A DNA stretch of 64,000 bases, from NCBI GenBank assembly GCA_964460795.1, contig CAYWRU010000002.1, positions 1,173-65,172 on the forward strand. Direction: 5' to 3'. Positions 1 to 33,960 of this stretch are shown here, piece by piece. The notes beneath the pieces were generated by a model that was not told the DNA's origin, made no database searches, and saw only the letters and a list, made by a program, of their open reading frames with translations. The position numbers and the translations under genes were made by a program. The DNA is from an uncultured bacterium. Its GTDB lineage: Bacteria; Omnitrophota; Omnitrophia; Omnitrophales; Aquincolibacteriaceae. Position 1 is the stretch's first letter; each line of letters starts with the position of its first letter.

Positions 1-3000
1 TAGGATGCGATGAATTCAATATTTCCAAAAGCTGCTGCAGCGTTCGAATATGGACTTGGTTTAACTTGACCCCCGCTTTCCCCAAAAAACGGAAATCTGT
101 TTTGCGATGCATGATTTCATGCCAAGCCTGAAGCGTAAGATCCTGTCTCCAAATACCTAACTTATAAAAACTTTCCAGTTTTAAACGGGCTTGCTGCAGA
201 AAATTATCAATATTCCGCCTGTCCTTTTTTCCTTCCTGCTGAGCTAACGCCGCTGCATTTTTCTTTATTTCTCCCTTCAGGCCGTAAAAACTCTTGGTAA
301 GTTTTGCCTGAAAATCGGTTAAAGGCGTCCAGGTTCGGCCGCGATCCGGGAAAAGGGCGTTCATAAATTCCTGTTTTTTTAGATAAGTCGGCATCGGCTT
401 TGTGCGAACCTCCGAGCGCCCCCGGGGAACAACTTTCTGCTGATCCTGCACTAAACGCACTTCTGAACGTGGGGCAGCGGGTGGTTCCGGAGCATGCATG
501 ACACTGTCAATGTCTGCGGCGCTGGCATTGGGGAAGGTCAACGTAGCCATCCTTGGAAATATTTTTTCTTCAGATAAATGCATCCGGCCCAATCCATTTG
601 CAAATTCAAGCGCGGCCTGATTAGGATCCCCAATTTCCAGCGTTTTGCGAATAAGTTTCGTCAATGGAACAGGATAAGAATGCCCGTTTCTTTGCAAAAT
701 AATGTCCAATCCTGTCACTGGAGGAAATTGAGAATAATGCGGACCAAAGAGAGTCAGAAGCCGCGGTTGATTTGCCTCTTGAAGTTTTTTCAAAAAAAGC
801 CCGAACCCATAGGCGAAATCGTCCGATGAAACCCCTGAAAACATAAACGCCTGGAAAAGCTGTTCAAAACTTCCATTTCCAAATCTAACTTCCACCACAA
901 GACCAATCCCCTCGTTAGGATGACGACTGAGCAAACGAAAAACGTCTTCCTCATCCGGCAGGGCATTAATCATAGGCCCGAACCGCACCTTGATTTGATT
1001 GGCAAAGGCAGAGGCTTGGCGAAAGGTCTCATAAAGTATATCCATAACCAGCGAATAAATTTCTCGCTGATGACCTTCCCCGGACAAACCCGGAATTGAG
1101 CGATGAAGCCTGAAGATTTCGGTGCGAAAATCCTGAATATTCCATTCAGCGGATACAAAGTTTTTCCGGGAAATTTTTCCGTCCAAAACGGTTATTCTCT
1201 GAATCAGATCTCTCAATTTTTCACGCACCTCATCCGCCGGATAGACTGGCAGGGATTGAGCAAGTGATTCATCCAAATAAAAAACAAAATTAGCAGAAGG
1301 CGCTTTCTCCGCCAAAACCTTGACAGCCTCCAGTGCTTGATCCTGAGGAACTCCCTGTAAACGTTTCAAAACAACCTTAACTTCTTCATCAAATATTTTT
1401 TCCGGCCTGTTTACATCTCTCTGCTTCGCTTGCTTCTCCCATTTTTGATAAAAGGGAAAGAGTGCTTCTATAAAGGCTTCCCGGCGCGCCTCCTCCCACG
1501 ATAAAGACAGGAAATGAGTTCTCATCCGTTTAACAAAATCCTCTTTCTGCGCCTTTGCGGCCGCCAGCTCAGGGCCTGCTTTTATAGAAATGTTGTTTCG
1601 GGATGCTGGATGCTGATACGGCGCATCCTGTTCTTCATCACCAAAAGGATAAGTGCCGTCGTCCCGCTCTTCAGATCCAGAAGTAATAAGCAGAGTTTCA
1701 TCCGGCGCGGCTTGCCAATGCCAGTCCGGTTGATCGTCCCTCGGAGTTTCATAACCAGGGGGCGGTGCCACGGAGGGAATTTTAGGAGGTGAAACTATAC
1801 TGGGCGTATCACCCTTTCGATGGATAGCGTTCATTGGATGAGCTACGGCCACCCCGGGTTCAGACGGTAAATCTCGATCAGCCCGTACATCCCAGCTTGC
1901 TTCGCGAATAAAAAGACGGTTGGGACCTTCAAATAAAACCCGGTATAGCTGCGGATTTTGGGGCGTGACGTGTTCGCCCATGGGAAAGGTCTGAAGCCAT
2001 GCCAGAACTTTTCGCTGATTTTCTAATTTTCGATAAAAATCTTCTCCCCAATTGGGCAGCCAATTGCTCACCAAAGTCCCATTTAAGTAAATATTCAACC
2101 GCGCTGGATCGGCCACAGGATCTAAGCCTCTCTTCCGAACTTCATGGATCGGCAGTCCTGTTTCTTCGGCTAATCGTTCCCGGAGTTCTGGCGATAGACT
2201 CTGAATCAAAGAAGGATCCGGTGGAAGCAATGAGGTCGGAATTCTGTACACATGATAATCCGAAGTCGATAAATGATGCGGCAATCCCCTTCGAAGCGGT
2301 GAGCGCACCCAAATTGCCCCTTCATTTCCAGAATCACTGGGTGTCACAGGAGCCGGGAAAATCTGAACGGTATACCAGGCCCCGGAAGCCACAATCCGCT
2401 CAATATCGCGGAGGGTGGCATAGTGAGAAAAATAAAATCCCTGATTTGCCATTTCTGATAATAAAAACGGAAGGCCGTCCCTTCCATCCCGAAGATGGGA
2501 CAAGACTTCGGGATGAACTTCAATCTGAATTTTCGGATTTTTTGAGATATTGACCATCGAGGAAGGCGCTGGAACGGAAATAATCGCCGGCGGCATGGCA
2601 GAAGTCACCGCGTCATTTTCTCTGCTCTTCATCACTTCTACCAGAATGGGGTGACGATGATCCAGAACGAGGTGAACTCCGAACGCATGGTCTTCTTTCA
2701 CAAGTGAAACTGAAAATGGAAGTGACTGCATCTGTTTTGACATAATTTTTTCCGGATCATTCCGATGAGTATTTAAGGCTTTTTGAATTGCTTTGCTATG
2801 AAGATGCGCGCGCTCAGGCAGTTCAAAAGTTATTTGATGATGAACGGAAATAAGGCTCTGAAGCCAGATTCTTGTCCCGAGCTTGGGGTCTAAGGGATCC
2901 AGAGGATATTCCACAAAAACCGCCTCGAGAGGTCCGGCATGCAGAGCCGTTTCCAACCATTGAATGTCTTCTGCCTTCATGGGAAAATCAGCCGCTTGTT

Positions 3001-6000
3001 TTTTAATCTCTTCCCATGCGCTTTCAGCCCAATATCCAGGCTCTAATGTCTTGATCTTGACTGAGATTCCCGGAACAGCAGTCTCCACGCTCAAGGTCGT
3101 AGGCGGAACAGTTGATTTCCATGGGAATATAAATCCCCCTTTCACACCCATAAGTCCCAAAACCGCTTGAAGCACCGCGTGATCAGTGTTCAAGGAGACA
3201 ACCGAACGCTGCGGAGCAAGATCCTGAGTGATGGTTTCAAGCGAATCATGGGCTCCCATCATGACAAGGATTTTTATTTTTATCTCGCTGGATAGATTAT
3301 TAAGATTTTTGACCAGCTGACTCCAATAAATAGGATGCGAGAGCGCATCTGCGATGGCGGTTTGAAAATCAGCGCCGGATCTCAGCCATTTTTCTTTTCG
3401 CGCTGAAGAAGAAAGCACCGGCATCGAAACTCCATGATAAGGAATGCGGGATAATGCGACCAAAATCTCCATCTGGGTTTCAGGGCTCAGAAAAGGATAC
3501 TGAGTTTGTAGATCCCAGACCGGATAATCGATGCGGCCGAAATCACGATAATCTGTTTCTCTTGTAGATTCATTAAATAAAGGCGCTTGGACAGGAAAGT
3601 GCAGCAAGGCGTCCGAAGATTCATGGCTAAATCCAAAATCAGCAGACACCGGCAAGGCGTCGTGCAAAAGAACCAGCCCAGGCTCTCCCGGGTTTTTATG
3701 TAATAAACTCTTCATTTCTATATCCGTTCCCTGAAGAGTCATCACCCCATATGGACGTCTCTGGGTATCCATTTTCTCAAGACATTTTTTTAAGACGGGG
3801 AAAAAATCGTGAACCGTGACAGCTCCCGAGACCAGCATGGCGGGGACAAGCCCCAATCCCCGCCCGGTTAAAAAGGCGGGCTTTAGCTTTCCATGAAGAT
3901 TTTCTTCCCAGGTTTTATACAGCGCAGTCTGATAGAGAAGTGCGGTCAGAAGATGAAAAACAGGCGGAGAAATTCCGTCTGCATTTTGAGTCGTCAGCGA
4001 TTCCATAGACACCTTGAGCGACTGAGCGGCCTCTTCATACAGTTTCCGGACGGATGAAAAATTCCGGACCATTTGCGCTGCCGAATCCCGGGCCTCCTGA
4101 GTCATTTCCGGCATCACTTCCGCAAAGATGATCCCCATTTCCTTGGTTTGAAGTCCTCTGAAAATCTCCTGCGTATTCCGCCTTTCCTTCCTTAGTTCGG
4201 ACCGCTTCGCAGACCCCTCTGGAGTTTTTTCTAAGTGATAAGCCGCCAGAAAATCTTTGATCTGCTGCAGTTTTATTTTTCCTAATGCCGGAATTCCAAG
4301 CAGGTCTTTATCCGAGGCATTTCGCAGTTGTTCGAGTGTTTTAATTCCAAGATTCTCTCTGAGCCCTTTTATCCATCGCGGCAGTCCTATACGATAGCTG
4401 TATCCCAAGAAACCAAAATCCGTTTCTCGGTTCAAAACTTCTGGCGTGGGGCCCTCGTTCCACAATCCTAGCTCATAAAAACTTTCAAGCTTAACTCGAG
4501 CTGATCTCAAAAAATTATTGCTGTCACGACGGTCAGATCGTCCTGATTCCTTGGCTATTTCCAGGTGAGATTTTTTGCTAGCCCCTTTTAGCCCGTAAAA
4601 ATCTCTTACGACGCGCTGTTCAATTTCCGTCAGCGGCGTCCACTCATCGCCATCATCCGGCAATACTTTCGCAACAAAATCAGAGTTTTTTAGATGCTCA
4701 GGAAGTACATGCTCTGCATCTGGTTTATGCCCTAAAACAATCCCCTGTTTAGAAGCCTCGGGATGTTTTTTAAAGTAGGCATGCAAACGACTCACGAGAA
4801 TCCCCATCACGCCGGCAGCCTGATTAAGACTTAATCCCGCCAAGTCTTGGGGGTGCCTTGCCAGAAGCGCTGCGATCTTTTTAGACCGCATTTCGCTGCG
4901 CGATTCAGAAAGAGGCCTTGGCATGAATTCATTTAATCGATATCGAAGCAAGGACTGCAATTCATAATCTTCAGGGCTGGGAAGCGTTACCTCAGTATAG
5001 GCAATAGATCCATGGCGAACGGCAATCGCTGCGGTTCCAATGGGCCGATCTTTTAAGCTCACCTTGTATCTCAAAATATCACCGGATCGATAAAGCTGCA
5101 CCATCCCCGGGGATCCATAGTAACCAAAAGCCATGTCACCATGATAATCAGTGTGATTCCACTGTAGATATTGCAGCGGTTGACTGGACGATTCAGGAAA
5201 ATAGGAATCAAAATTATGTAAGATTTTTTGCAAAGCATAACGGAAGGAATGTAAGGTTGCCGCCATCGTCATTCCGTGGTCTGCCGTAATTTGCTCCAAA
5301 GACTTGTTCGGCTCTCCGGCAGAAACACCAAAATGCTCATTGAGTATCAGCGTTTCAGCATTGGATAAAAGTTTCCATGCTTTGCCACGCTGCTTCTGTG
5401 CCTTTTGGGGGGCCCTGAATTGACGGATAAAATCCCGGCCATAAACTGGATTTTTAAATATTTTTTCCACCACCTCCTCCGCGTTTCGCATTTCAGAACG
5501 AGGAGGTGTCTTAGATACGGTTTGAGCCGATGACCATCGAATGCGTGTCGGCAAAGCAGCCGAGGAATCACGAAGAGGCCTCAAAATTCCGGTTCGAAAG
5601 CGCTGCGTCCGCGCTTTTTGATTTTTCTTTTGAAGTTCAACGATCTTTAAAACACGGACAAATTCATCACGCGTCATGATCTTAGAATCCACAGCCGCTA
5701 AGCGCATTTGATACATCATCCGATCGAAAATCTGCTCGGCTTCCTGAACGGTCATACCCCGCTCTTTCGCCCATAAAGGAATCAAGGCTTCGTTGGGATC
5801 CTCTTTCCATTTTTCAAAAAAGAAAGCCTCCTCCCCGCTGAGAGACCCTTTGAAACGCTGAATGAACCGCGCCATTGCCTGGACATCTAAGGAAGGAAAC
5901 CAATCTAATATAGAATTATCCACAAGCACTTCTAAGCGGTCTTCCTCACCCTCCACAGCAGATGCCAAAATCGGCAAAGCCACTTCGCGCCGAAGATGCC

Positions 6001-9000
6001 GCGTGGTCTTGCCCAAGTGTTTTTTAATCTTTGCCTGAGCCGCAGGTTTGGCTTGTTCAAAGAAACGAATACCGTTTTGAGGTTTAAATTGGGGAAGAAA
6101 TTCCTGATAGGCCAATTTGCCTTCAGAAGCTAGTTCTGCTTTGTCATCATCGCGGATGTTATAACGATCAATCACGACATCCAAAGCCCAAAGGTTCGAA
6201 GCCACAAGATGCGCACCCGCAGTTTCATCTTGAGTATTTGATAATAAATAAAGAGCGCCCAGCACTAAATCCCCCAACGGCTGGAGACGAGGCTTCTCGC
6301 CTTCCGCCACTTTTTCCTCCATCAGCTTGGGCTGTTTTTCAAGCCATTTGAGAAATGCGATCACGTTTTCGGTCTCGGGCCGTGATGCGAAATCCGGCTC
6401 ATTTAATATTTGAATAACGCTGAGAACCACGACATAGAGCATTTGGTGGATCGCCAAAGTCACATAGGGCGTTTCAACAATCGGATTCTCCCAATGAAGA
6501 CGCGCTGCAAGTTTCGAAGCGGTGTTTTTTGCGTAGGCGATGTTTTTCCACAAGGGCTCGTGTTTGGCCAAAACATCCTTAAACCGCCCTGAGGCATTTT
6601 GAATGGCGGTATCATTTTCCTGCTGAACTGTACTGGCCATTTCCAGAATACGGCCTTCGATCTGGTCCGGATCCTGAGTGGCCAATCTTAAAGCTGCACT
6701 CACAACAGCCTCTTCATCCAAAAGACCCGGCACTTCGACATATTGCTCGATTTCTTTTTGAAGTTCGGCAGCGCTCGCGACCGAATCATGGAGACGGCCG
6801 CGGAAGTAATCGAGAAGTTGTTCATAGCGTTTTTTTCCGTTAAGTAATCGATTCCATCGCTGTTCCTCCATCCGCAAAATCGACTCTCCCAAAGCCAGGA
6901 GATTCACTCGCGTGGCTTCAGACCGAGAAGCAACTTGAATTCCCTGGAGCTCCGCAGGCTTTTCCGAAGGAGGATTAAGCAGCAAAGGGGCGCGCCTGAC
7001 TTTTACGCCGGATTCAGATCCTGCTTTTTCTGAAGGAAGGAAAGAATCGCCGTTTGATTCCGGATTTCGATAGTCAAAAGACATCGGCTGCCTTTCAAAT
7101 ACCTGATAGGGAAGGCTCAATTCCTCGGCGATTTTTTTAAAATCAGGTTCCTGCTTCAAATAGGCATAGGCTTCGTAAAGCGCTTCTTCGATTTTTTGAA
7201 GATAGCGCTCGGCTTCTTCCTGCAGATATCCGGATTCGCCTTTAACAGAAATGCTGATCCCGAGAAAATCTAGATACTGCTGTTTTAGGCGCGAAAGTTC
7301 TCCCTCGCTTGCGGCATGGTGGTAGTCCTCGATGACAGAATCTGGATATCCCAGGAAAGTTCCCATAATCACCGGTTCCGATACGGGGTTTCGAACCATC
7401 CAATCAAACAAGGAACTGAAAAGCGCAATGGAATATTCTGAAAATCTTTCGAGGTCATTATTTTCGTAGGCTTCGCCCAGCCAGTCCAAGTGAGATTTAG
7501 CTTCAGGATCCACTGAACCCGTTAATAACAGCAGATCTTTTTTGCCCAAAACCTCGGCGCCAAGAAGATAGGGAGAAAAAATACAGGTGTTCGTAAAAAC
7601 TAATCCGATTCCTAAATCCTCAACGCGGTGCCACCTGGACAACTCTTCATAAAGCGGTGAAATCGAAGGATCTGAGGCATCAAAAACACTACCCTGAACA
7701 TACGCAGGCCGAAGACCAAGAAATACAGCCAGCACTGCAGGGGTCATCAGAATTTTTCGGGATTCAAACGACAGACGGCCATAAATTTGTTTCACAAGCC
7801 GGATCCTGTCCAAAATAATGTCCGCTTCATCGGACTCAAAAAGCGAGGCCGTATCGATCGGTTCCGCAGGCCGCAAAATATTATAGGAAGACAGCGGCGG
7901 AACTTGTCCTTTCATTTCCAAAGCCGCCAAGAAAAGCGGCTCCAGATCAACCCCTGTCAATCGAATGCGGTATTTTCTTTCCCAATGTTTTCGAATGGCT
8001 TCAATATCCAAATCATCCGGAAAACCTTTAGGAAAATACCGTGCTAATTTTTCTGCAAAAACAATTCCTGCCTTTGGATTTCCAAAAGCAAGATTAATCG
8101 GTTCTAGATTAAATTCAGCCCGAACTTCAGAGCGCTTTTTATCGCGCTCAATTTTGTCCCTCGCAAGCCGCACCATCCCTAAGTGTTTTAATCCAGTCAT
8201 GCCGGTTTGCATATGGAGCGCTGGCGGCTTCGGAGGCTCAGGTTTTTCATGCTGTTTTTTCCGGAGCGAGACTGCCGGAGTCTCCTGTCCCATAGCCGAT
8301 AACGCCTCTTTTGCCCGTACCCCCATGGTAGCATCACGATAATGGACGGCGGCCTGCCATCTTTTCTCAGCTGTTTGAATTAATTTTTGGATATATTGAG
8401 TTTTAGCATTTCGCCTTTGAACCGGAAGACTTTCTCTCCAATGTTGATAATAAGGAATTAAAAGAGTTCGTTCGGTTTCCGTCAGAGGCGCATCCGCTTG
8501 AGTGGCCCCATGTGCAGAAAGCCAGGAAGCGTATGTGGTTCGAACATTTCCTGCCCCTAAAACATACGAAATGGCCGCAAGGCTGGGGGTTTTTATTCCA
8601 AGCGCAGCAAGATGATCGCGTGCCTTAGCTTCTAAAATTCGGGACGCGTTTGAATCAAGCTTCATAAAAACCTCTGGCACAACAATTCCTTTTTGAGCTA
8701 ATGGAATGCCATATTGCAATGCTGTATTTTGAATGCTGTCAGTGCCAGCGACGTGAAGTTCTTTCGCAAAATCATTTAATGGAATCGGCATAATCTGATA
8801 AACGGGATTTCCCTGCCGAAGCCTTTGAAGCGCCTGATCGATCAGAACCTCAAATCTTTCTTTAGACTTAGGAAATTGGAGCCCCCAAACACCCAGCTCA
8901 CGAAGATTGATTTTGTAAGCTCTCGCCCACCGCCGAAGTCGAAACGACGTGATTCCCATTTTTTTGGCAATTTGATTTTCCCGAGGATGCTGGGTTTCCT

Positions 9001-15000: not shown

Positions 15001-18000
15001 CGGGTTCCTTGATCATGTTGGGATTATCAAAGCCGGCTTGTTTAAAAAACGCCGCATTTAAAACGCTCAGGTAACCGAGTTTGTTTTTTTCATCGGAAAT
15101 ATCGCGGAGATTTTTACGAATGGGTTCCGATGCCGGAAGCAGGGTCTCTAAAATTTTGATGAAAGGCTCGACTTGAGATATCCCGCTTGAAAAACGCCCC
15201 ATATCTGCGGCACTTACTAACGCCTGACTTGTACCCTCTTTTTTTGTCAGAAAAAGCCGGAGAACGGGTGCAAATAAATCAAGAATGGGAGATGCCCGAT
15301 CAATAAGCTTTTGACGTTCAGCCGGAATTTTATTTTTCCCGCCCGGCCAATCTTGAACGAGCCAATCCTCAAGAGAAAGTGTTTGCGGCTCCGGCGCTGG
15401 CTTGGCTGGCGGCAAAGCAGCCTGTCTTACCGAAGTATCGCGGCGGCGCGCATCTAATAATCGGGTGAAGATATGTCCTATTTCCCGGAACTCCGGGGGC
15501 ATGGTTTTTATCACCGTTTCCACTTCTGCAACAGAACCTGTTTCAAGCATTTTTCTAAAATCTATTAATTTTTGAAAATGGGCCATACGCGTTTCCCAAG
15601 GCTCTCCATTTGACCGAAGTTCACTGCGCAGCGAAGGCGTTAGGGCCCAATTATGAATTTTCTCAACGCTGGCAAGAAAAGCCTCCGGAGAACTGAGGTC
15701 AAAGGATGGAGGAGTATTTTCTTTCTGGACAATGGAAAGCTCTTGGATACGGCGAACGGATGTTCGATAACTTTCAAACACTTGTTCGAGCTCAGTTGAT
15801 ACCTTTTTGGAATAATCCGCCACAGCAAGCTGCTTCATTTGAGTCTCTAATCCGACACTCTGTAGTTTGAGGCTTTCGGATTCGCGTACCGCAGCATCCC
15901 ATTGATGATAAAAATCAGGAAGTCCGCCCTGCCCCGGGGCCGTTTGCTGCATAAAAAAATTCAGGCGGTCACGAAGATAAAAAGCGTTCGCCTCTTTCAA
16001 CATGTCATGAGAGTCCAATCCCATCCATACGATAAACGCTAGATTCAAAGCGATGTAGAAATCACGAGCCGCTGGATCATGAGATCCTTCCGGAGAAATC
16101 TTAAGATAACGTGAAAGAAGCGGCCCTGCATGATCGATCAAAGGCTGAATCATCTTAAATTTTGTTTCCCATGGGAAAATATTATTCTTGTGAAGTTCCC
16201 ACGCAGAGCCTCCCTTAGCGGTTTCCTTTCGAGGGACTAAAAACAAAGCCAGAACGGGAAAAAAGAAATCGCTTAGCGTATCAAACCGGACAAAAAATTC
16301 TGCCCGGTTATCAAATCCCGGATAATTTTGAGCGGCATTCAACCCGGCCTTAGTTTTCAAAAATTCAGCGGATGTCCAGGGACTTAACTGCCGGCGGATC
16401 TCCCGTGCAGACTGATCAAAATTGCTTAATAGCGTTTTATCGGCTCCAACCGGAATGGCGGAAGGCGCTTGAATACCATAAGTGCGCAGTTCATGGTCCT
16501 GCTCTAATTTGAGCTGTGCCTGGGTCGCCTGAAATTCGGCGTCGGTGCGGGTGATGAGCCGGGAATAGAGTTTTCTGGCCTCAAAAGAGCGCGCATGCTG
16601 GCGGGTCTTGGGCAAAAGACGGCGGGAAAGCGCCAACTCTACGAGTAATTTTCTAAGAATGCTCACTTTTTCCTCGGGGCTCATGCCTGCATGAAATGCA
16701 TAGGCCTGGACCACGGCTTCATCATATTCCAATGCAGGAATATCTTCAGACTGCGGAACAGGATCAAGAGGTGATTTCAAAATAACGACTTCAACTTTTT
16801 TCATGGATTTCGGCTTGCTGGCATTTCCATGAAATTCTGCAGCGGGGTCAATCCAAGGTTCTTTCAACGTCAATTCTAACCGCGGAGGAAGATTCAATCC
16901 GCCTTTGGAAGATCCGGCGGGTTCTGCGGGTAAGAAACGGACATCCAAAACTTTTTTAAGGAGAGCCGCCAGCTCATATTCAGAGCGCAGGTAGGGTCTT
17001 AAACCCAGACTTAAATTTGCCCATACCGAAAGAAAATTATCGGCTTCCACGCCGGGCCGCCATTGATGAGGAGCTTCCGATGCTTGTACGGATTCAGCCT
17101 GGGTGTTCAGAACACGCAAAGACGTTACCGTATTTTTGCGAAAGGCATCTAGATCAAGCCGCTCGTCCATGAGAGAAGCGTCGGCCATGACTTTAGGCAC
17201 TTCCGGATCAAGATCCGTATCCAGCCCCACTAAAAGACGGTTTATTTTGTGGCCTTCACGAAGTAAATTCCATAGTGGGTTATTACGATCCGATAAAAGA
17301 CGATCATAATGAGCGGCTGATCCGAGAACCGCGCGCAGTAAAGCATTGATTTTATCCATCCCTCCGAAAACCTTGAAATGAAGCCGGCAAGCCCGTAGTT
17401 CATTCGTTTCAGGATATTTTTTTGCCTTTTCATCATTAAGATAGTCCAATGCCTGCTGAAAAAAATTCCGGTGCAGCTGCGTCCAAAACTCCCGAGAATG
17501 TTCATGCATGCGGGGTTCTGGATGGGCCGCAGGATCAAAGGCAATAATTTTCCGGAGCATGGCCCGATAATAAAGTCCCTTGTCAATCAGTTGGAACTGA
17601 TCAAATAGTTCAGGAGCGAGCGCCTCTGCGTTGAGAGTGCTCCAGACTCCGTCAGCATCCAGACTTTTATACGTGCGTTTTTCAGAAAGTTCAGAGTCTG
17701 TTTGAGCCACATAGACTTTTCCATCCGAGTGAATAAAAAATCCGCTCACATGGTCAAGCGAATAAATCTGACCCTTTGAACGCACGTGTATCTCTAAAGC
17801 GCTCGAATGCGCTTTTATAGAAAACTGAAAAGCTGCTTGGTGAGGATAAGTTTTTTGAATCTCATGGATCCGCCGGCGGATGGCCTCTGCGTCCATTTCA
17901 AAAATCATGTCCCTTAATTCCGAGCGGTTTGAGATTTTTGAAATATTCACGCCCGAAGAAGGTAAAGCATTCTTTCCAGATTCGCCGGGATTGGGTACAA

Positions 18001-21000
18001 AGGGCATAGGTCTGTCCCCCCGATCCAGATCCGCGCCTGGCACATTTTCTGTGTTTTCTGTGATGGATGGGCTCGTTCGCATTTCTGCCCGTTTCACAGG
18101 ACGAGAAAAATCTAAATGCAGGAGGTGGGCCATGGATTCGAGACCGCCTTCGGCGATCAATCGGCCTTCCTCGTAGATCTGCCACCGGTCTTCCAAGGAC
18201 CGTTTTCTTTTAACGATCCAATTTAGCGCTCCGTAATGAGGCTGAATTTTGCAAAAGGATTCGATCAGTATTTTTCCGTGAAATTCTTTTTCCAGCTGGG
18301 CCTTCATAGCCTGAAGAAGTGAGGGAGTGTCGGCAAAGACTCCAATCCGCAGCGGGTCAAGAGAGGATTCAAAACGTAATTTTTCGTGCAGTTTCAGCCA
18401 GGCCTGAAGTCCTGTGGCATTCCAGGCCAAGGCCAGCGGAATTTGATATTCGCTGTCAGGTTCAAATTCATTCGTGGAAAATCCTGCCGCATGTTTAGTC
18501 AAAGACCATCCGTTTCCTTCCCGGGAAGCCTTGTCATCCGTTCCCACGACCTCATCCTGCGAGATTCCGAAACGCTCGGCCATAAAACGGAGGGCCAGCG
18601 CCTTATCAACTCCCTTGACCATGATGTCGATGGAAACCGAAGTGGCCAGAGGTTCAAAAAGATGAAATTTCTGATGAGCATGACTTTGGAGAAATTCCCG
18701 GACCTCTGCAGTCATTTGATTAATCTGACGATTCACTTCGTTTTGAGTCGTCCATTCAGGCTTGATATCCACCCAGGCCGCAAAACCGTATCGTTTGTCT
18801 TCCTTAAACACAAAAGGATGTTTAAACCCCCGCGATTCGAGATGCTTCAAAATATCCTGCAAAATCGCTTCCCGTTCTTCGGGGGTAAAAATGAAATCTT
18901 TGGCAACCACACCGTACTTTTTGACCAAATCCACTTCTTTCCGGACCAAGCGGCCGTCTTCTAATTCGTCCCATGCGGCATAACTTCCGTTTTCGGGAAA
19001 CAAAATAAAGTTGGATAACTCGGCGCCCGAAAGCCCCTCTCGAATGCGGTGCGCCACTTCTGCCACATCATGGACTCCGCGCGCACGCGCATCCGTATCG
19101 GTAACATGTTCAGCTCTTCCGCTGACAAGACCGTAAGGAATTCCTTCACCAAGAAGATTTTGAATTTTCAAAAGCGCAGACTCATCCGCTTCCTTGCTGC
19201 CGTCCGGCGTCAGATTGCCGTCAAAATCCGCCAGTCCCGAAAAATAAGTTTTTTTCAGCGCCGCTTCCAGCCGCCGTATGGCTTCCTCACGTGTGATACC
19301 TCTGATTTCAGAACGGCGATCGGTAGTCGAAGGCTGATAGGTGTACTGCCATTTTTGCCAGTCTTTTGGATTCTGTGCATCCACCGTTTTATGAATCCCT
19401 GGAAAAAGCGAGGGGTGATCAATCATAAAATCCAAAACATGATGCGCTACATAGTATGGATCTTGCAAACGCTGAACCGACGCTCTCTCCTGATCCAGGG
19501 TGATAAGCTTATGATTAAGAGTTCCCCGATCAGCTTTTGATTCCACGGTGAGATTCTTTTTATGCATCTCTCGAAGCCAAATCTCCATTTTCTCCAGATA
19601 CTGAAGCGCTTTATCGTGGTCTTCTTGATAAAACTGCGTCACCCCGGAAGCATCCCAAGAAAAATCAGGCGCCAGATGATGGCTGATGACCATATCGATG
19701 TACAAAATCTTGTTCATCAGAGCTTCATAATCACCCAACGCGCCATGAGTTTTCCATGCCTTATGAATGGCTTCCATGATTTTTAAAACTCTGTCATTTT
19801 GAGAAATGCTTCTTAAGCTTTCTTCACGCCGTTCATTTTCTTGCTCTCTCCAGTTCCAGTAGGATTTGATCCTGAAGAATTTAATCAAATGCCACAGCCG
19901 CGGAACCAAATATAAAAGTCCTCCCACGATCCCCGGGGTCACAAGCGCTAAGAAGATGGGGAGCAGATTCCCGCGCATTTCCGAACGACCAGCCTTGCCT
20001 CCCGCACCGGTGCCTGGCACGCTCTTTGCGCTCTGTGTTGAGGATGGACTCCTGACACGTCCGCGAGTAAAAGGCGCAAAAGAAGCCGCATACACAAAGA
20101 GCAGAGAAAAAATACCCGTCACCGCATACGTTACAACATCCCATGGATCCCAGGTGCCGGCTTCCGTTTTATAAAACTGTCCCTGTTCCTGACCCATCCC
20201 ATCGATCATGAAATAAATGACTCGAAGTACAATCATAATTCGGAGGGTTGTGGCCCAAGTTTTTAAGGTATTCGCGCTGAGCCGGAACAAGGAAAGAATG
20301 ATTAAAAAGGCATAGGTCCAAAGATAAGTAATCCCGGTCACTCCCGGCACGTAAAGAGCATCGTTCAAGTAATGACTTGCAAAAGTCCTGAGAGGTTTCC
20401 AGTCTATAGATGAAGCGCCACCGAGATAACTCACGGACTCGCGATAATACGCAAAAATGCCCAACATCAGAAAAAAGGAAAGGCTGGCATAAGCAAATAC
20501 TTTCGAGTCTCTTAAGCGTTCAATTCCTCTTGAAATGGCACGAGACTGTTTTTTAGGTGCGGACGGAGCAGGGCGTTCGTTCACCTGAAATTCCCGAAAC
20601 GCCAAAACAATCGCCCAAACACCCAAGGACACACCTGCAGCTGACGGAATGAATTTTTTTAGAAACTCGGTTCTGCGGATTGAAGCATAAACTCGATTCT
20701 CGGAAAGCTGCTTTGACTTCAAATGCTCGCGATGCGCCAGCCATACCGAAATGTACCTGATGAAATGTTGTTCAAGAGCCGTTTCAAATTCCTGGCGGGT
20801 TTTATGGTCCCTTTTAAGAAAGAATGTTTCTCCTCTATAATCATTCACACGCAAAAGAAGTCGCCACTGGGCAGGTCCGAATCCTCGTTTGACGCTTTTC
20901 ATGGTGAATTCATGGATTTGAAAATGGATTCCCCGTTTCTTAAGCTCCGCCTCACTGCGCTCATCCGGAGAAGCTGCAAAATACTTTTCGACTGCCGACC

Positions 21001-24000
21001 GCGCAATGGCAGCAAAATCAATATCGCTATATTCAAAAACTGAATGAGAGGCTGTTTCAACGGAAATCTCGACATCGTGAATTTTAAATTTTTGAGGCGC
21101 ATTGAGATGCGGACCGTCCCGAGAGCCATAAAACATGACGGATGCCATAATGCCTGTGAATCGCCCGATCCACATCATCAACTCATCAAAAGTCGCAGCC
21201 CCGTCTTTTTTATCCACGGCTCCGGTACCCCTTCCAAAAGTACGGGGTTCGGTCGTCCGCACCTCGGAGCGAGGAAGTTGAACGGCGCCCGGATGGTTTG
21301 AAGGCAATAAGTGATGGGGAAAATCAGTGACTTCATGGAGGACATAACTCTTACCATCCAAAATCATAGTGTCGAGGAGTTTCAGCGTAAGGCGGTAAGG
21401 GATGGGAACATCCTGGATCGATTCGGCCCGCGATGGATAGACCATCCTGGAGTGCCGATGCTTCGAAAGAAAATAAATTTTCTCAGCGGATGCGAACAAG
21501 ATTTCATTTCCCCTACTGAAACCGTAGTCAACGCCGGTCACTTTTTGAATGCCGGCCTGTTCTTCGAGACGTGAGAGAAGACGTCGAATCTGATAAACTT
21601 TGAGTGCCGTCAAGTAATCCGCTAGGCCCGCAAATATCCCCAAGAAGCTGGTTCCGGCTAACAGCAAACAGGACCCATCCATGACAGTTAAAAAGGGAAA
21701 GCTGGATAAATTCCAGAAAGCAGAAAAAGTAGTGACGAAAATAGACAAGGTAACGAATGGACCGCCCAAGGCAATCAAAACTCTCTGCCTCGCCGTAAGG
21801 CCAAATGGTGTGGTGAAGAATTTAGTGTAACCAGCGGAGACAGAGATGGAAACTCCACGAATGCTGTCCAGGTCTTTCAGCTGGTAATATTTTGCAACCA
21901 TCCAATGCCCCATTTCATGGGACCACACTATGGTGAGATAGCTCAAGGGAAAAAGAAAGAGTGGGATTGCAAACCCACCCAATAGATCACGGATCAATCC
22001 ATTCATGATAAAACCAGCGGTGCTGATAAGAACCAGTATGGCCCAATGTTCGAATCGCCGCCCCAAAAGATGTCTATCCAGAACCTTGTGAAATCGCTTC
22101 ATCCACGAAATTTGTGAACCGCTCAAATGGACGGCGCGAAGTTGTTTTTCAAAAGCGTCTTTAATACTTTCTTTTCCTTCTCGTACTTCAGAGCGCTCAT
22201 GCCTGCTTGTCCGCCGTAGCTTTAGCGAAGGAGGATCCCCCGCGCCGGTGCCTGGCACGTTCTCTCCGAATGTCCCTCTCGCAGTGAAGTTGCCTCTTAC
22301 TGTGGTGATAGTATCCGTTGCGATCTTGAGCGTTGTCATATATCCTGCTTCCATGAAAACCATTGCGGAGGAAACCCATGGTTGAAGCCACCATTGCCAT
22401 CGCTGGAATCGGAATTTTGGTTGCGGTTGTATTTTTTTGGGAACAATACCAGCAAAAACGCCCTCCCCAGAATCCTCGCCGGCCTTCGTAACACCGGAAT
22501 CATCTAACCGAGCCCCACGGGCAGTCATTCCCGGCAAACCGGTGGTGGGTTCGGTTTTTTGGTTTTGAAAGACATAAAAGCCTTCATTGCTGAAGGTTTT
22601 GACAAAACCATGTTTTGCGAGTGTTTTTAAAAGAAGTTGATTGTGCTCATCGGCAGGCTTTCCCTCCCCGTTTCCGTCCGCACCGATAACAAAATGTCCG
22701 CCGTTTTTTAAGACCCTCCGGACTTCTTGGATCGCCTTGTCATAAAATTCCTCGATGCTTTGTCCCGGATCTTTTACGATCAAACCGTGATAATGGGATA
22801 CAAAAAGAAAAATGCTGATCACGGTATCAAAGGAGTTGTCCTGAAAGGGCATGGCTTGGGCTGTGCCGTGAAAATAACCGCGCTTCGGATCATCCGAAAG
22901 ATCTGGAGACAGACCCATCATATTTTTTCCTTGTTTACGAAAATAGGTCACAAGATTCTCATTCAGAACCTCGTCGCTAAAGTCATCATTTTCCACATCA
23001 AGATTTAATAAAGAGCCCTTAAGCAGCGGTTCGACATGGTACCCGTCCGATTCCGCTAGTGCGGCATAAGTCCTCCAATAATTCACATGCCCGGAATAGG
23101 TGGGAGCAAAAATCTCATCACGGCTTCGAACTTCCGCCCGATTCGAGTGAACCCGTGCGCCTGTTTCGATTGAGCCAGTGGATTTTTTTAGGGCATGGGC
23201 GTACTGGCCGACTGGCACACGCGCTGACTGGCTCACTGGCTCACCGGCTAACTGTTTTTCCATTTCACGAATTTGAAGAATGGGGTCCGCGGATTTGACT
23301 TGAAGCGCGGCGGATTCAAGAGCGCGGAGCTCGGCACGTGCTCCGGCAAACGGCATGGACTGCCAGCGCGCGAGACTGCTGAGCGGACGAGCCGTTTGAT
23401 CCGAAAGTTCATAGTCCATAGTCCATGGTCCATAAATTTTTTTTGAGTTTAATTTGGAATTTGGAATTTGAAATTTGAGATTTGTTTCGGATTTCGAGTT
23501 TCGAATTTCAAGTTTTTCAAATGCATACGACCGTCCTATCATCAATTTTTGGTAACGCCGCTGATGCCGTTCGCTGGTGCGCGTAATCATGGGAAGAATA
23601 GATTGGCAGGTAATCCCCTGTTCACGCAGCGCATCCAACACCGCGGGTTTATGAAATCCGCCGAAGACCAGGACGGCTAATTTCTGATCCGGATCGGATT
23701 TAAAATCGCGAATCGCTTTTTCCATGATCCGGTCGCGCGCATGGGCCGTTAAATAAAAACGAATCGCTTTTTTGATTTTGTGCTCCCAGCCTTTTGAAAG
23801 CAGAATGGGCCGGCCGGTTTCATGCGCCAGAAAATCCGCAAGACCATCGGTTTTAAATTCATTTAGAGTTTTCATGGCACGCTTGAACTCTTCGGGGCTG
23901 GCTGTAATTTTTTCGACTTTGCTGAGAAGCGAAAGGGCTTCCAAGGTTTGGAATATTTTCTGCTCGCGGACTCCGGCCAAACACTTCTTCACCCCCTCTT

Positions 24001-25155: not shown

Positions 25156-25713
25156 TCAGAAACAGGCCTGGGAGAGCATCTTGCGGAATAGTTCGCGGGG
25201 AAATCCAACGACATTGGAATAAGAACCATGGATTTTTTTGACAATTTTGGGGCGGCACTGAATCGCGTAAGATCCGGCTTTGTCATGCACATGAATTCGG
25301 ATAAGGTAATCTTCAATTTGCTTTTTGCTTAATTTCTTAATCCAGACCCGAGTCACAGCAAAAGCCGAATAGCACACCTGAAGTTTCTGGTCTCGCAACG
25401 CGAGCGCGCTGATCACTTCATGAGACTTTCCGGATAAACGGGCCAGCATGGACTTCGCCTCTTTATCCGATCGTGGCTTGCCAAAAACTTTTTTTCCTAA
25501 ACACACGATCGTATCCGCTCCCAAAATCCACCGCGCTTTTTTAGGAATGACTGCCAGGGCCGCTTTTCCTTCTGCGTGCTGCAAAGCAATTTCGAAAGGT
25601 TCGACGCCGGATATTTTCTTTTCGTGATAAACAGATTTCGCGACCTTAAAGGAAATTTTCATTTGCCGCAAAATATCGCGGCGCCGAGGAGATTGGGATG
25701 CGAGATAGAGCAT
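25156..25713 (-). CDS. maf: Maf-like nucleoside-triphosphate pyrophosphatase (septum formation protein Maf family)
   Basis: [18 protein letters not shown]... matches the Maf N-terminal LILAS-SPRR motif. I chose the start at 25713 (ATG sharing 1 nt with the TGA of the upstream GT2 gene) rather than the track's 25770. Confidence 0.8.
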   Translation of the reverse strand: MLYLASQSPRRRDILRQMKISFKVAKSVYHEKKISGVEPFEIALQHAEGKAALAVIPKKARWILGADTIVCLGKKVFGKPRSDKEAKSMLARLSGKSHEVISALALRDQKLQVCYSAFAVTRVWIKKLSKKQIEDYLIRIHVHDKAGSYAIQCRPKIVKKIHGSYSNVVGFPRELFRKMLSQACF

Positions 25714-26396
25714 CAGTCGAAGAAACGGAAGTAGAGGATGGAAAAAATGGCTTTGACGCCGTCGATCCAAGTGATCTTTTTGCCTTCTTCATAACTGCGG
25801 CCGCTGTAACTGATCGGAACTTCATAAATTCGAAAATGATTTTTAGCTACCTTCATCGTAAATTCCGGCTCAAATCCAAAACGATTCGAACGGATCTGCA
25901 CCTTGCCGAGAACCTCCCTGCGGAACATTTTGTAGCAAGTCTCCATATCCGTGAGATTAATGTTCCCCAAAATATCGGTGAGTAAAGTCAGGAATTGATT
26001 GGCTGCATAATGCCAAAAATAAAGTACACGGTGAGGCCCGCCTAAAAATCGTGAGCCAAAGACTATATCCGCACGGCCGTCTAAAATAGGTTCTAGAAGT
26101 TTTGGATATTCCTTGGGGTCATATTCCAAATCTGCATCTTGGACCACGATCACCTCTCCCGTTGCAGATTGAAATCCTGTGCGAAGCGCCGCACCTTTCC
26201 CCTGATTTTCCGCATGATACAAAACACGGAAACCCGGCTGATTTTCAAATTTTTTGAGCAGCTCGCGGGTTCCATCTGTTGAAAAATCATCCACCAAAAT
26301 TATTTCTTTATCGATAGAGACAGACTGCACGCGCCGGATCAAAGACTCGAGCGTTTTCACTTCGTTATAAACAGGAACAACCACTGATAATTTCAT
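25713..26396 (-). CDS. Family-2 glycosyltransferase, polyprenol-phosphate sugar synthase type (DPM1/ArnC-like)
   Basis: 227 aa. [11 protein letters not shown]...[11 protein letters not shown]...[11 protein letters not shown] are the GT-A motifs typical of GT2 polyprenyl-phosphate glycosyltransferases. Confidence 0.8.
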
Positions 26397-26553
26397 GACG
26401 AACTCCTATTGGTCGTCATCCTGATCCCGCTAAAGGCGGGAGAAGGATCTCGGCCCCTTTGACTCGTGGTTCGACCTTCGCTCACCACCCTGAGCGGCGT
26501 CGAATGGGCTCAGGGTGAGCCCTTCGTTTGAAGAAATAAAGTATTGCGAGTGC

Positions 26554-28401: not shown

Positions 28402-28508
28402 GATGCTAGTGGTTCAACTAAATTAAAATTATCTGCAGATGATTTCAATCTTCGCTCACCACAGTACTGAGCTTGCCCCTAAAATTAATTTTGTCGAAGT
28501 ACTAGGTT

Positions 28509-29144: not shown

Positions 29145-29231
29145 ATGTCAGAATGATCGGCAAAAACACAGAAAACAAAAGGCAGGGCTCTTTCTTCAGA
29201 GCTTCAAAGCGAAGGAGGGCTGTTGGATTTA

Positions 29232-29597
29232 TTAAGCTTTTCCCGAAGACCAGCGGATGGATTGATCCAGAGGTTTGTCCTGAATCACTTTGACGCTGAT
29301 TTTTGTCCCATCACACCAGGGCCATAAAAGAGCAATTTCCTTCCCTGAATTTCCATTGTGAAGATAAAGCTGCTGATTTTTTCGTACTCCTCCCCATCGA
29401 TCGGTCACGGCCTGAACCTCAGGGGTGACTCCGTGCTGAAGATCCTGTCGAGGGCCAAAATGCGCCTCAAATATTTTTGCCAGCTGCCCGACATGCTCTG
29501 CCTTGATCACAAACTCACAAAAGTCATGGAGTTCAAAACGCCACTCGTCCACCGGCAGCTTTTCTTTGATTTCTCGTCTTAATTCTAAAAAATCCAT
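29232..29597 (-). CDS. Hypothetical protein
   Basis: 121-aa ORF, co-oriented with its neighbours. No motif recognised. Confidence 0.45.
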   Translation of the reverse strand: MDFLELRREIKEKLPVDEWRFELHDFCEFVIKAEHVGQLAKIFEAHFGPRQDLQHGVTPEVQAVTDRWGGVRKNQQLYLHNGNSGKEIALLWPWCDGTKISVKVIQDKPLDQSIRWSSGKA

Positions 29598-29616
29598 TAA
29601 ACACTTCTTTGTAGGG

Positions 29617-33697: not shown

Positions 33698-33716
33698 AAA
33701 CTATTCCCGGGGCCTT

Positions 33717-33950: not shown

Positions 33951-33960
33951 ATATTATCTC

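Follow-up and report, generated by a model that had tools for sequence, protein, structure and literature searches.

R-x-E-x-R motifs before the shuffled modules of giant Omnitrophota proteins: candidate processing sites of a secreted polyprotein

Results

A giant modular protein with a TIKI-like N-domain

The stretch of DNA analyzed here (the window, 64,000 nucleotides) encodes at its left edge a modular protein that belongs, as a large member, to a multi-copy family specific to Omnitrophota. The minus-strand frame of the giant gene runs without a stop from 24967 to 2 (8,322 codons) and exits the window at the left edge; the C-terminus of the giant protein lies beyond the window. The gene and its recognizable parts are as follows.

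2..24961 (-): giant gene; likely start GTG at 24961, stop-free frame from 24967, at least 8,320 aa visible
24866..24961 (-): Sec-type signal-peptide-like N-terminus (aa 3-34: KRR, hydrophobic core, GGYA)
23492..24811 (-): conserved family N-domain, TIKI/ChaN/Ere-like (aa ~53-492; model pLDDT 80.8, Foldseek, Pfam)
22685..22876 (-): SAM methyltransferase-like match (aa 698-761; Methyltransf_11, E 1.2e-6)
21620..21937 (-): weak M50-like membrane block with three TM-like segments (aa 1011-1116; E 0.007, under the Pfam cut-off)
18545..19228 (-): Cof-type HAD hydrolase-like module (aa 1914-2141)
11081..11854 (-): FabD/acyltransferase-like module (aa 4372-4629)
9986..10372 (-): methyltransferase-like module (aa 4866-4994)
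4247..4369 (-): helix-hairpin-helix / RNA polymerase alpha-CTD-like element (aa 6867-6907)
3776..4078 (-): second FabD-like match (aa 6964-7064)

The family layout consists of a Sec-like signal peptide, an N-domain of ~450 aa, a string of unrelated enzyme modules that differs from member to member, and a C-domain of ~190 aa, which in complete members is conserved, Rossmann-like, and ends in [AS]A. The signal-peptide pattern is conserved in the family: 89 homologs were compared, with a positive n-region in 83, a hydrophobic core in 79, and xY[AST] in 40. The family is multi-copy, its modules are shuffled between members, and its cargo is made up of unrelated enzymes that occur elsewhere as free-standing proteins. 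An earlier note on this DNA had singled out its M50-like and ChaN/TraB-like modules for a cleavage test. The M50-like block is ordinary cargo, a weak match and no family feature; the one protease-like part that all members share is the N-domain.

The ChaN/TraB-like label of the N-terminal block was right at the superfamily level, since both Foldseek and Pfam point to a TIKI-like domain. The top Foldseek matches of the predicted structure, EreC (6xcq) and Bcr135 (3b55), were weak (E 8.7e-3, TM 0.17-0.23). The Pfam model Cofac_haem_bdg (ChaN model, Tiki superfamily) matched the N-domain in 5/31 members (best E 1.8e-5), and the window copy scored far below the cut-off (12.3 vs 27.7 bits). Esterases (Ere) and the haem-binding ChaN belong to the superfamily as well, so membership does not make the N-domain a protease. 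Residues D77-x-H79, E107, H148, R411, and GGFH439 (ORF numbering) are invariant. Among these, the D-x-H, the Glu 28 residues on, and the GxxH correspond to the 2His/2Glu pattern of the TIKI-family endopeptidase RRSP, where this pattern is essential (PMC6254334). Judged by its residues, the N-domain is TIKI-like with a predicted catalytic His/Glu pattern that is intact.

Twenty-one motif copies in one coding frame

A regular expression for R[SA]E[VILM]R returned exactly 21 matches in the 8,322-residue frame (18 RSEhR and 3 RAEhR), spanning 23324-23338 down to 404-418 and reproducing every site listed in the earlier note.

Site 1: 23324..23338 (-), RAELR, aa 544; low-confidence linker directly after the N-domain (pLDDT ~34)
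Site 2: 23126..23140 (-), RAEVR, aa 610
Site 3: 22181..22195 (-), RSEVR, aa 925
Site 4: 21257..21271 (-), RSEVR, aa 1233
Site 5: 19973..19987 (-), RSEMR, aa 1661
Site 6: 19301..19315 (-), RSEIR, aa 1885; exact start of a homology block with L030
Site 7: 18077..18091 (-), RAEMR, aa 2293
Site 8: 17912..17926 (-), RSELR, aa 2348; 1,500-aa homology block with L041 at aa 2349-3850
Site 9: 15614..15628 (-), RSELR, aa 3114
Site 10: 13430..13444 (-), RSEIR, aa 3842
Site 11: 12752..12766 (-), RSEVR, aa 4068
Site 12: 12323..12337 (-), RSEIR, aa 4211
Site 13: 12248..12262 (-), RSEVR, aa 4236; homology block with L061 from aa 4248
Site 14: 11063..11077 (-), RSEIR, aa 4631
Site 15: 9872..9886 (-), RSELR, aa 5028; several homology blocks begin at aa 5028-5032
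Site 16: 8120..8134 (-), RSEVR, aa 5612
Site 17: 5486..5500 (-), RSEMR, aa 6490
Site 18: 4886..4900 (-), RSEMR, aa 6690
Site 19: 4190..4204 (-), RSELR, aa 6922
Site 20: 455..469 (-), RSEVR, aa 8167
Site 21: 404..418 (-), RSEVR, aa 8184

As the earlier note had argued, chance would supply far fewer than one match: 0.10 are expected from composition, and 2,000 shuffled sequences gave a mean of 0.095 and a maximum of 3. The relaxed patterns R.E[VILM]R and [RK][SAT][ED][VILM][RK] each return the same 21 matches, and RSE is the most frequent tripeptide of the giant protein (23 copies). All 21 matches lie in the coding frame, compared with 2 in the remaining five frames over the full window. Apart from the giant gene, window ORFs of 100 aa or more contain no strict match, as previously claimed, and one copy with A at position 4. 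At the window sites, Ser is encoded by TCT, TCG, TCA, TCC, AGT, and AGC, Arg-5 by both CGN and AGR codons, and position 4 is filled by V, I, L, or M, in line with the protein-level selection proposed earlier; Arg-1 is always CGN (CGY in 17/21), a bias absent from the earlier note.

Intervals between sites are indeed irregular, from 17 to 1,245 residues, and the modules fall where they had been placed. The M50-like block lies between the sites at aa 925 and 1233, the acyltransferase between 4236 and 4631, and the methyltransferase between 4631 and 5028, with the Cof/HAD match starting past site 1885.

A family hallmark at the N-terminal edge of modules

The motif is not limited to the window protein but is a phylum-wide hallmark of the multi-copy family, in which 286 clusters at 50% identity match at E ≤ 1e-30. 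Across ~270 relatives its density is 1.5 to 1.65 per 1,000 aa, with 398 sites among homologs totaling 239 kaa, 334 sites in 223 kaa of genome loci, and 479 sites in a further, independent sample of longer members (290 kaa), which reach 7,652 aa with 20 sites. ORFs with the N-domain carry 1.50 motifs per 1,000 aa versus 0.066 in the 2,689 remaining ORFs at these loci, and this residual density is mostly owed to truncated upstream family members; the expected absence from unrelated proteins was borne out within these genomes. Every motif-bearing protein has the N-domain, and the first site follows it by 30 to 100 aa.

Selection on the motif is strong and acts at the protein level. In alignments below 60% identity, its R/E/R positions are 59 to 66% identical and the flanks about 20%, so that the conserved motif and variable flanks anticipated earlier are found in homologs. 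Lys almost never replaces Arg, and 389 kaa of family sequence hold 780 motifs, compared with 1 R[VILM]E[SA]R, 0 R[SA]D[VILM]R, and 1 K[SA]E[VILM]K. Small residues precede the motif, S/T/A directly follows its last Arg, and an acidic stretch lies downstream, a logo that resembles a protease site.

The motif is confined to the family, sits in linkers that are poorly conserved, rich in indels, and low in pLDDT, avoids folded domains, and marks the N-terminal edge of shuffled modules. Pfam envelopes cover 20% of the sequence and contain 0/84 sites (17.2 expected; P = 4.5e-9), and gap frequency is highest just upstream of the motif. Homology blocks start within 5 aa of a site in 25% of cases (null, 2.7%) and within 20 aa in 53% (null, 9.8%); in the window protein they begin at sites 1885, 2348, 4236, and 5028. 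The earlier picture of linker punctuation therefore stands as to module edges, but the motif is attached to the following module rather than placed symmetrically between two, and the conserved C-domain itself contains some copies, placed ahead of a beta-strand and 8 to 17 aa from the C-terminus. Site-free domain boundaries also exist, as in P0032, where epimerase, ROK, and DHQ synthase succeed one another without a motif.

R-[SA]-E-[VILM]-R describes the window protein correctly, but the invariant family core is R-x-E-x-R, of which it is the window lineage's version. Positions 2 and 4 vary by genome (chi-square p = 2e-30): six JAUYMS paralogs use RSELR, three CAYGIT paralogs RSEAR, JBAYGD R[PTA]EMR, and SICL RSE[VL]R. 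Single proteins carry RPEAR (8 copies), RSEAR (8), or [RN]SESR (7), and one member has 10-11 GFGA and no RSEhR, with an unremarkable N-domain 51% identical to those of RSEhR users. N-domains of paralogs within a genome are 39 to 53% identical, no closer than those from other genomes. Since the flavor is uniform across such old paralogs, the sequences imply that one shared, genome-level factor reads the motif; no column of the N-domain alignment covaries cleanly with flavor. Our literature searches yielded no earlier account of R[SA]E[VILM]R, in agreement with the earlier note.

Discussion

We give about even chances to the reading that the motifs are sites at which an endoprotease processes a secreted polyprotein; the leading suspect is the TIKI-like N-domain. 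The precursor would be exported via its Sec-type signal peptide, and an endoprotease would recognize the motif at the end of each disordered linker, directly before a module, and release separate modules. Because the second Arg is usually followed by Ser, Thr, or Ala, the cut would probably fall after it. The N-domain could act on its own chain and on paralogs; alternatively, the reader could be a separate protease, made by the bacterium itself or by a cell of its host or prey. In the AlphaFold model, the first site was not docked into the N-domain, and the flanks of the loci hold no conserved protease or secretion gene. Under the processing reading, the motif, which marks module starts in hundreds of related Omnitrophota giant proteins, is the first concrete candidate for their long-suspected cutting sites.

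That the sites are cut by a separate single-copy enzyme reading R-x-E-x-R, either an Arg-specific protease that the bacterium has in its periplasm or at its surface or a host/prey protease encountered once the protein is delivered, seems rather unlikely, the N-domain then serving, e.g., in anchoring, esterase activity, or export. A single reader is the simplest account of uniform flavor across divergent paralogs, of the lack of a tracking N-domain column, and of the ordinary N-domain in the GFGA-swapped member. However, none of the loci is linked to a candidate protease, the strict co-occurrence of motif and N-domain and the constant first site would be left unexplained, and flavor would be homogenized as well if N-domains acted in trans on the whole set of paralogs. 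It is also unlikely that the giant protein functions as one uncut chain, with each module's R-x-E-x-R serving as a linear tag bound by a chaperone, a translocation/secretion component, or a scaffold, or modified at Arg or Glu. The motif resembles known linear motifs in being short, repeated, and in disordered context, any co-evolving binder would fit genome-specific flavor, and cutting makes less obvious sense at copies within the C-domain or near the extreme C-terminus. Yet five near-invariant positions that exclude Lys are stricter than most docking motifs, and the wholesale GFGA swap at the same positions is typical of protease-substrate re-pairing. Moreover, the cargo enzymes stand free elsewhere, no partner is known, and the interchange of S and A means that the Ser hydroxyl is not needed, which rules out Ser phosphorylation.

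Explanations at the level of DNA, translation, or composition fare much worse. Were the 15 nucleotides a microhomology for cassette exchange between paralogs, with the amino-acid motif a by-product, sites at homology-block starts in a shuffled, multi-copy family would be expected, and codons are biased across family sites (Arg-1 CGY, 78% vs 40% background; Ser TCN, 94% vs 68%). The same codon locking, however, marks the invariant N-domain residues (Ser 100% TCN, Arg AGR depleted) and is therefore a general conserved-site effect. In addition, all codon families occur, position 4 varies, 15 nt with many degenerate positions are a poor recombination substrate, and selection on amino-acid identity is visible where flanks are only 20% identical, making this very improbable. 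Separation or pausing in translation (2A-like "StopGo," ribosome arrest, or internal initiation at a position-4 NTG) is even harder to credit. Position 4 residues M, V, L, and I do match ATG, GTG, TTG, and ATH codons, and GTG is enriched among position-4 Val codons (54% vs 29%), but NTG occurs at only about half of the sites, the RSEAR, RSETR, RPEAR, and GFGA variants could not initiate, and no upstream nascent-peptide or Shine-Dalgarno element is conserved. We know of no bacterial precedent for this. Hydrophilic linkers and the prevalence of RSE could suggest a low-complexity artefact of an Arg/Glu/Ser-rich protein, a reading with next to no probability that we rejected: neighboring genes lack the motif, shuffles average 0.095 matches, and permuted or conservative variants are essentially absent beside 780 motifs.

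A repeated pentapeptide at the starts of modules

The pentapeptide R[SA]E[VILM]R (RSEhR, where h is hydrophobic) is a recognition motif under selection and confined to one protein family; it marks the N-terminal edge of modules and is read by a genome-level factor. The giant gene in which it was noticed is a minus-strand frame running from window position 24967 down to 2, with 8,322 codons uninterrupted by a stop. Its probable start is a GTG at 24961, preceded by AGGA, and the ORF runs past the left window edge, so that the C terminus of the protein lies beyond the window. A regular-expression search of the translated ORF returned 21 matches, 18 with Ser and 3 with Ala, reproducing exactly the coordinates and the Ser/Ala counts of the earlier note; all 21 are in the coding frame. 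The composition of the protein predicts 0.10 matches, and 2,000 shuffles gave a mean of 0.095 and a maximum of 3. Allowing any residue at position 2, or K for R together with D for E and T for S, added no match in the window protein, and the strict motif has no copies in the window ORFs outside the giant gene.

When the window protein was scanned with Pfam and NCBIfam, the enzyme modules that it carries (its cargo) gave matches to methyltransferase, M50-like, HAD, acyltransferase, and HhH models. For four of these, the M50-like, HAD, acyltransferase, and methyltransferase blocks, the matches confirm where the earlier note placed the motif copies. The protein has a signal peptide (SP)-like N terminus and about 10 transmembrane (TM)-like segments. 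In the window protein, homology blocks begin at sites 1885, 2348, 4236, and 5028 (amino acid numbering of the ORF), and the first site is in a tail of the structural model with a pLDDT of ∼34.

The position of the motif was examined across homologs as well. In alignments of <60% identity, the R, E, and R of the motif are 59 to 66% identical compared to about 20% for the flanks, and the gap frequency reaches its maximum just upstream of the motif. When Pfam domains were mapped in 13 proteins, using the best stretch per Pfam family, 0/84 sites fell inside domain envelopes, where 17.2 would be expected at 20% envelope coverage (P = 4.5e-9). The starts of homology blocks are within 5 residues of a site in 25% of cases (null, 2.7%) and within 20 residues in 53% (null, 9.8%), an enrichment that is partly due to the conserved motif anchoring the alignment; the ends of homology blocks are weakly enriched at sites. 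This asymmetry between starts and ends indicates the order module, variable linker, motif, next module. The motif logo has small residues upstream, S, T, or A immediately after the last Arg, and an acidic stretch downstream. Sites are spaced at a median of about 300 residues, some 16% of the intervals are short spacers of under 60 residues, and several adjoining recognizable domains have no site between them.

Two further features of the window protein were observed. Cysteine is nearly absent, accounting for 0.1% of the 8,322 residues (window 2-24967, minus strand), and two modules within the protein are paralogous:

Window 2-418 (aa 8189-8322), minus strand, one copy of the paralogous module
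Window 4205-4885 (aa 6695-6921), minus strand, the other copy of the paralogous module

The pair shares the pattern TPLT(E/D)...FYGLKG...DRR..(N/D)NFL..AR.KLESFY.LG.W and each module contains a helix-turn-helix that resembles sigma-70 region 4; behind it is a helix-hairpin-helix, which matches the RNA polymerase alpha-CTD weakly. Sigma-70 and alpha-CTD Pfams also recur as cargo in homologs P0003, P0030, P0049, P0094, and P0139. A homolog search for an alignment of the window-protein cargo at aa 4200-5040 retrieved none.

The motif marks a family of Omnitrophota proteins

With the first 1,700 residues as the query, 120 proteins of 1 to 3 kaa were retrieved, all of which match over the first ∼450 residues only (the N-domain) and differ in their Pfam families beyond it. 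Their cargo includes methyltransferases, GT4, radical SAM, NUDIX, HAD, epimerases, kinases, sigma-70 regions, SecA, PPDK, and others. These homologs contain 398 motif copies in 239 kaa, the first typically at residue 460 to 570, directly past the shared domain. Every named homolog derives from Omnitrophota/Omnitrophica metagenome-assembled genomes (MAGs), as do all 80 of the loci described below, with a few labeled just "uncultured bacterium."

A scan of one genome per species confirmed 172 family loci, which occur several to a genome and frequently in tandem, and of which 80 (L001 to L080) were fetched for a comparison of motif density between ORFs. The ORFs with an N-domain contain 334 sites in 223 kaa (1.50 per 1,000 aa), compared to 33 sites (0.066 per 1,000 aa) in the 2,689 other ORFs of the same loci, and most of these 33 stray sites are in upstream family members clipped by the locus edge. 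An exhaustive HMMER search of 1.84 billion cluster representatives yielded 286 clusters at E ≤ 1e-30, a number that rose to 1,088 at E ≤ 1e-10. A further 74 family members, the longest of 7,652 aa and none with more than 20 sites, contain 479 sites in 290 kaa (1.65 per 1,000 aa). Permuted or conservatively changed versions of the motif are essentially missing from family sequence. The motif is a feature of the whole family and not private to the window protein.

Head-to-tail tandem arrays of family genes were observed in L006, L020, L030, L039, L044, L045, L057, and other loci, where the upstream gene terminates in [AS]A 150 to 300 bp before the next N-domain gene. At least six family copies are present in one MAG.

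Motif flavor is genome specific

The invariant core of the motif is R-x-E-x-R. The residues chosen at the two variable positions, here termed the flavor, are kept throughout single proteins, examples being RPEAR (eight copies), RSEAR (eight copies), [RN]SESR (seven copies), RAENR, RSETR, and KSELR. Flavor is specific to the genome and uniform among paralogs (chi-square p = 2e-30), as in the following genomes.

Motif flavor among paralogs of the same genome (genome; family loci; flavor)
JAUYMS; L006/L008/L010/L013/L049/L074, six paralogs; RSELR
CAYGIT; L014/L030/L080, three paralogs; RSEAR
JBAYGD; L034/L055/L065/L067/L072; R[PTA]EMR
SICL; L002/L041/L050/L059/L063; RSE[VL]R

The N-domains of paralogs in the same genome are 39 to 53% identical and are not closer to each other than to members from other genomes. 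Uniform flavor among such divergent N-domains implies that old paralogs have been held on one flavor, and thus that there is one reader per genome or that the N-domains act on all paralogs.

One member of 3,467 aa (L060:9974-20230, plus strand; JACQQS010000037.1) is devoid of RSEhR and instead contains, in settings that look like linkers, 10 to 11 copies of [ST][SA]GFGA. The two copies nearest the N terminus, at residues 570 and 611, take the place of the first RSEhR sites in other members, and the protein looks like a case of wholesale exchange of the punctuation motif. A search for relatives of this protein found no second GFGA user; its closest N-domains are those of RSEhR users, and its own N-domain is unremarkable. 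No column of the N-domain alignment was found to discriminate between flavors. The missing covariation with flavor and the unremarkable N-domain of the GFGA protein are the main weakness of the idea that the N-domain is the reader.

Conserved domains at both ends of the protein

The family N terminus, with a positive stretch, a hydrophobic core, and often (S/G)-Y-A, has the appearance of a Sec signal peptide and agrees with the SP and SP+TM topologies known for long Omnitrophota proteins (10.64898/2026.06.07.730766). Strongly conserved stretches of the N-domain include KTIIYIQDAHDSLEAQENIAK, TVFEEGYEGPVPTD, GGAEYAHINR, and LVFGGFHK. The AF2 model of the domain has a pLDDT of 80.8, and its best PDB matches by Foldseek, all with weak scores, are EreC (6xcq; probability 0.91, E 8.7e-3) and Bcr135/136 (3b55, 2rad). 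The TM-scores against these matches are just 0.17 to 0.23, the model being dominated by a large helical insert (about 220 residues). The Pfam model Cofac_haem_bdg ("Tiki superfamily, ChaN") matches 5/31 members (best E, 1.8e-5), and the window copy scores 12.3 bits against it, with a cut-off of 27.7. Sequence and profile searches of the PDB returned no significant match for the N-domain or for the C-domain described below.

Residues D77-A-H79, E107, and G-G-F-H439 are invariant in alignments of 40 and of 31 members, and E107 follows H79 by 28 residues, the same His-to-Glu spacing as in RRSP. In the 2His/2Glu constellation of TIKI proteins, E-x-H is followed by a Glu about 28 residues on and by a second His in GxxH, as in RRSP and Bcr135 (PMC6254334). 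RRSP, which has been proven to be an endopeptidase of the TIKI family, requires this pattern (PMC6254334). The N-domain has the same constellation with Asp, not Glu, as the first acidic residue. It thus shares D/E-x-H ... E ... GxxH with the TIKI superfamily (the TIKI1/2 Wnt proteases, RRSP, TraB/PrgY, GumN, ChaN, the erythromycin esterases, and Bcr135/136), from which it is nevertheless very divergent, given its helical insert, its low TM-scores, and a Pfam match that stays under the cut-off. Judged by these residues, the catalytic set appears compatible with a protease. The TIKI superfamily also includes esterases and a heme-binding protein.

In complete members, the ∼190 residues past the last linker site form a conserved C-domain. 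Its predicted structure (pLDDT, 88) is Rossmann-like, an alpha/beta fold that ends in a long helix. Searches by structure and by sequence gave no significant relative, with Foldseek returning generic Rossmann-like matches alone. Nearly all complete members (homologs P0001 to P0220; upstream ORFs of L006, L020, L030, L039, L044, L045, and L057) terminate in hydrophobic-x-x-[AS]A-COOH, for example ...LVIEMAA, ...YVVISKAA, or ...YTVISTSA, at the tip of the long predicted helix. This tail resembles an ssrA-type degradation tag or the ligand of a PDZ-containing tail-specific protease. Some motif copies are not linker sites: an extra RSEhR occurs within the C-domain of P0005, P0012, P0021, and P0057, directly ahead of the second beta-strand (...RSELRLVVY...), and another within the last 8 to 17 residues, in the terminal helix, of P0005, P0010, P0024, P0028, P0047, and P0057, where other members have LKTELARY or LRSQLLEY.

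Interpretation of the motif

R-x-E-x-R may be where an endoprotease processes an exported polyprotein. Several lines of evidence point to cleavage: the motif is sharp, excludes Lys, is followed by a small residue after its last Arg, and occupies linkers; Ser and Ala interchange, and the motif has been re-paired in a lineage-specific manner up to a complete swap; the cargo enzymes are free-standing proteins elsewhere; and every member has a protease-compatible catalytic domain with the first site right behind it. As expected of polyproteins, a short consensus is repeated at domain junctions amid variable flanks, and the consensus varies by lineage, with genome-specific flavors (RPEAR, RSEAR, RSESR, and GFGA). 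We predict endoproteolytic cleavage at the motif sites with about even confidence and regard it as fairly probable once the variant with a separate protease is included; within the cleavage reading, the N-domain and another protease divide the role of cutter roughly evenly. Cuts after Arg leave no trace in tryptic data. In the most extended form of the cleavage reading, a TIKI-like N-terminal protease would cut genome-specific R-x-E-x-R sites in secreted, self-processing Omnitrophota polyproteins, freeing strings of up to dozens of enzymes (methyltransferases, kinases, glycosyltransferases, and sigma/alpha-CTD-like and SecA-like modules), and this release would happen outside the cytoplasm or within a host or prey cell. 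Taken as a whole, such a phylum-wide system of self-processing and enzyme release is a tentative proposal.

The main rival holds that the motif is a docking or modification tag that is never cut, which we consider rather unlikely; among possible modifications, Ser phosphorylation was rejected since Ala occupies that position in about 17% of sites. A signal acting at the DNA level at module junctions is likewise unlikely. Codon use depends on the position in the motif at all 21 window sites, and at the 334 sites of L001 to L080 it is skewed, with CGY for 78% of Arg-1 and AGR almost never, TCN for 94% of Ser, GTG for 54% of Val, and Arg-5 leaning toward CGG/AGR. Similar codon locking is found at the invariant Ser and Arg of the N-domain, and a separate DNA-level signal was rejected on that ground. 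The bias looks like a conserved-site effect, although the strength at Arg-1 is not fully covered by it. Co-translational separation or internal initiation is also an unlikely explanation: NTG, which would serve initiation at position 4, is present in about half of the sites, variants with A, T, or S at this position and GFGA exist, and internal initiation was rejected. A compositional artifact is refuted by the shuffles, by the densities in neighboring ORFs, and by the missing motif permutations.

Comparison with known systems

By analogy, the motif system of the Omnitrophota would work most like MARTX toxins and viral polyproteins. Like MARTX (Vibrio RtxA), the family consists of very large, putatively secreted bacterial proteins that string together unrelated enzymatic modules, which in MARTX are freed by an embedded protease that cuts the inter-module linkers. 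MARTX toxins have a C80 cysteine protease domain, which is activated by inositol hexakisphosphate and cuts after Leu, as well as RTX repeats and type I secretion. No C80 domain, RTX/glycine-rich repeats, or type I signal was found in the 8,322 residues by Pfam and NCBIfam scans, and the window protein is not a member of MARTX. RRSP, for which endopeptidase activity is proven and which belongs to the TIKI superfamily, is one of the MARTX effectors (PMC6254334). In contrast to MARTX, the Omnitrophota family has a strict five-residue R-x-E-x-R, a Sec-like N terminus, housekeeping-like cargo, and many paralogs per genome.

Viral polyproteins (flavivirus NS2B-NS3, potyvirus NIa, and picornavirus 3C) have a short junction consensus that co-evolves with the protease while its flanks drift, and the flavivirus NS2B-NS3 sites consist of basic residues followed by Gly, Ser, or Ala. 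The Omnitrophota motif is similarly repeated at junctions and conserved amid drifting flanks, with a small residue after a basic one at the presumed cut. The two differ in that the Omnitrophota are cellular organisms with dozens of paralogous precursors per genome and freely shuffled cargo.

The motif-bearing proteins fall into an established class, that of the Omnitrophota giant "multi-enzyme" proteins, or Archaeovorins (West-Roberts et al. 2023 bioRxiv; Nielsen & Lui 2026 bioRxiv). They share the phylum, the tiling of many enzyme Pfams along one chain with a signal peptide and/or TM helices, and the methyltransferase, HAD, GT, radical SAM, NUDIX, SecA, and PPDK cargo. The features of class 1 of Nielsen & Lui 2026 (Omnitrophota origin and many Pfams, none dominant, with SP and/or TM) were found, and the visible length is 8,322 aa in an ORF that continues, against a catalogue threshold of at least 10,000 aa; family members, mostly 1 to 8 kaa, are under this threshold. 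West-Roberts 2023 and Nielsen & Lui 2026 describe domain content and topology and suspect cleavage via C39 or S8 peptidase domains; they give no cleavage points, linker motif, conserved TIKI-like N-domain, or conserved C-domain, and no cleavage points are known from published work on Omnitrophota giants. Full-text searches for the pentapeptides and for Omnitrophota cleavage or polyprotein topics found no description of the motif.

Polymorphic toxin systems, reportedly described by Zhang et al. in 2012 with releasing peptidases, are also modular secreted proteins, in which conserved ends that serve trafficking are combined with cassette-like variable parts and processing is built in. Their variable part is a C-terminal toxin accompanied by an immunity gene, whereas that of the Omnitrophota family is central and metabolic or housekeeping-like; no immunity-like genes were seen beside the window gene or across the 80 loci.

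The longest known bacterial proteins are those of the Omnitrophota, and whether they act as single chains or as cut pieces is an explicit open question, which a sharp, family-wide motif at module starts makes directly testable. The motif predicts where the pieces begin, allows giants to be split rationally for structure prediction and annotation, and supplies synthetic peptide substrates for a protease search. Together, the TIKI-like N-domain, the R-x-E-x-R linkers, and the [AS]A C terminus form a signature for cataloguing the family. If cleavage takes place, the family would amount to a polyprotein system in a cellular organism, spread over many paralogs and with a site specificity that evolves from one genome to the next; it would bear on the biology of these host-dependent nanobacteria and be a source of orthogonal protease-site pairs. 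If the proteins are also self-processing, they would parallel, in cells, the way in which viruses express polyproteins, and the motif would provide the missing cleavage map for the largest bacterial proteins known.

Genomic neighborhood of family genes

The giant gene lies among ordinary housekeeping genes, with no obvious mobile or secretion island. Its neighbors are the following:

Window 25156-37119, minus strand, Maf, a GT2 glycosyltransferase, a PMT_2-type membrane glycosyltransferase, valyl-tRNA synthetase, a LeuA-like protein, and aspartokinase

No protease or secretion system was found beside the window gene or across the 80 loci, where housekeeping genes only were present. An ABC-F type ATPase, with two ABC domains and without a membrane part, is upstream of the family gene in 11/80 loci (e.g., L034:3777-5837), and FabI-like reductases recur in 8 loci. 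These recurrent neighbors may reflect plain synteny.
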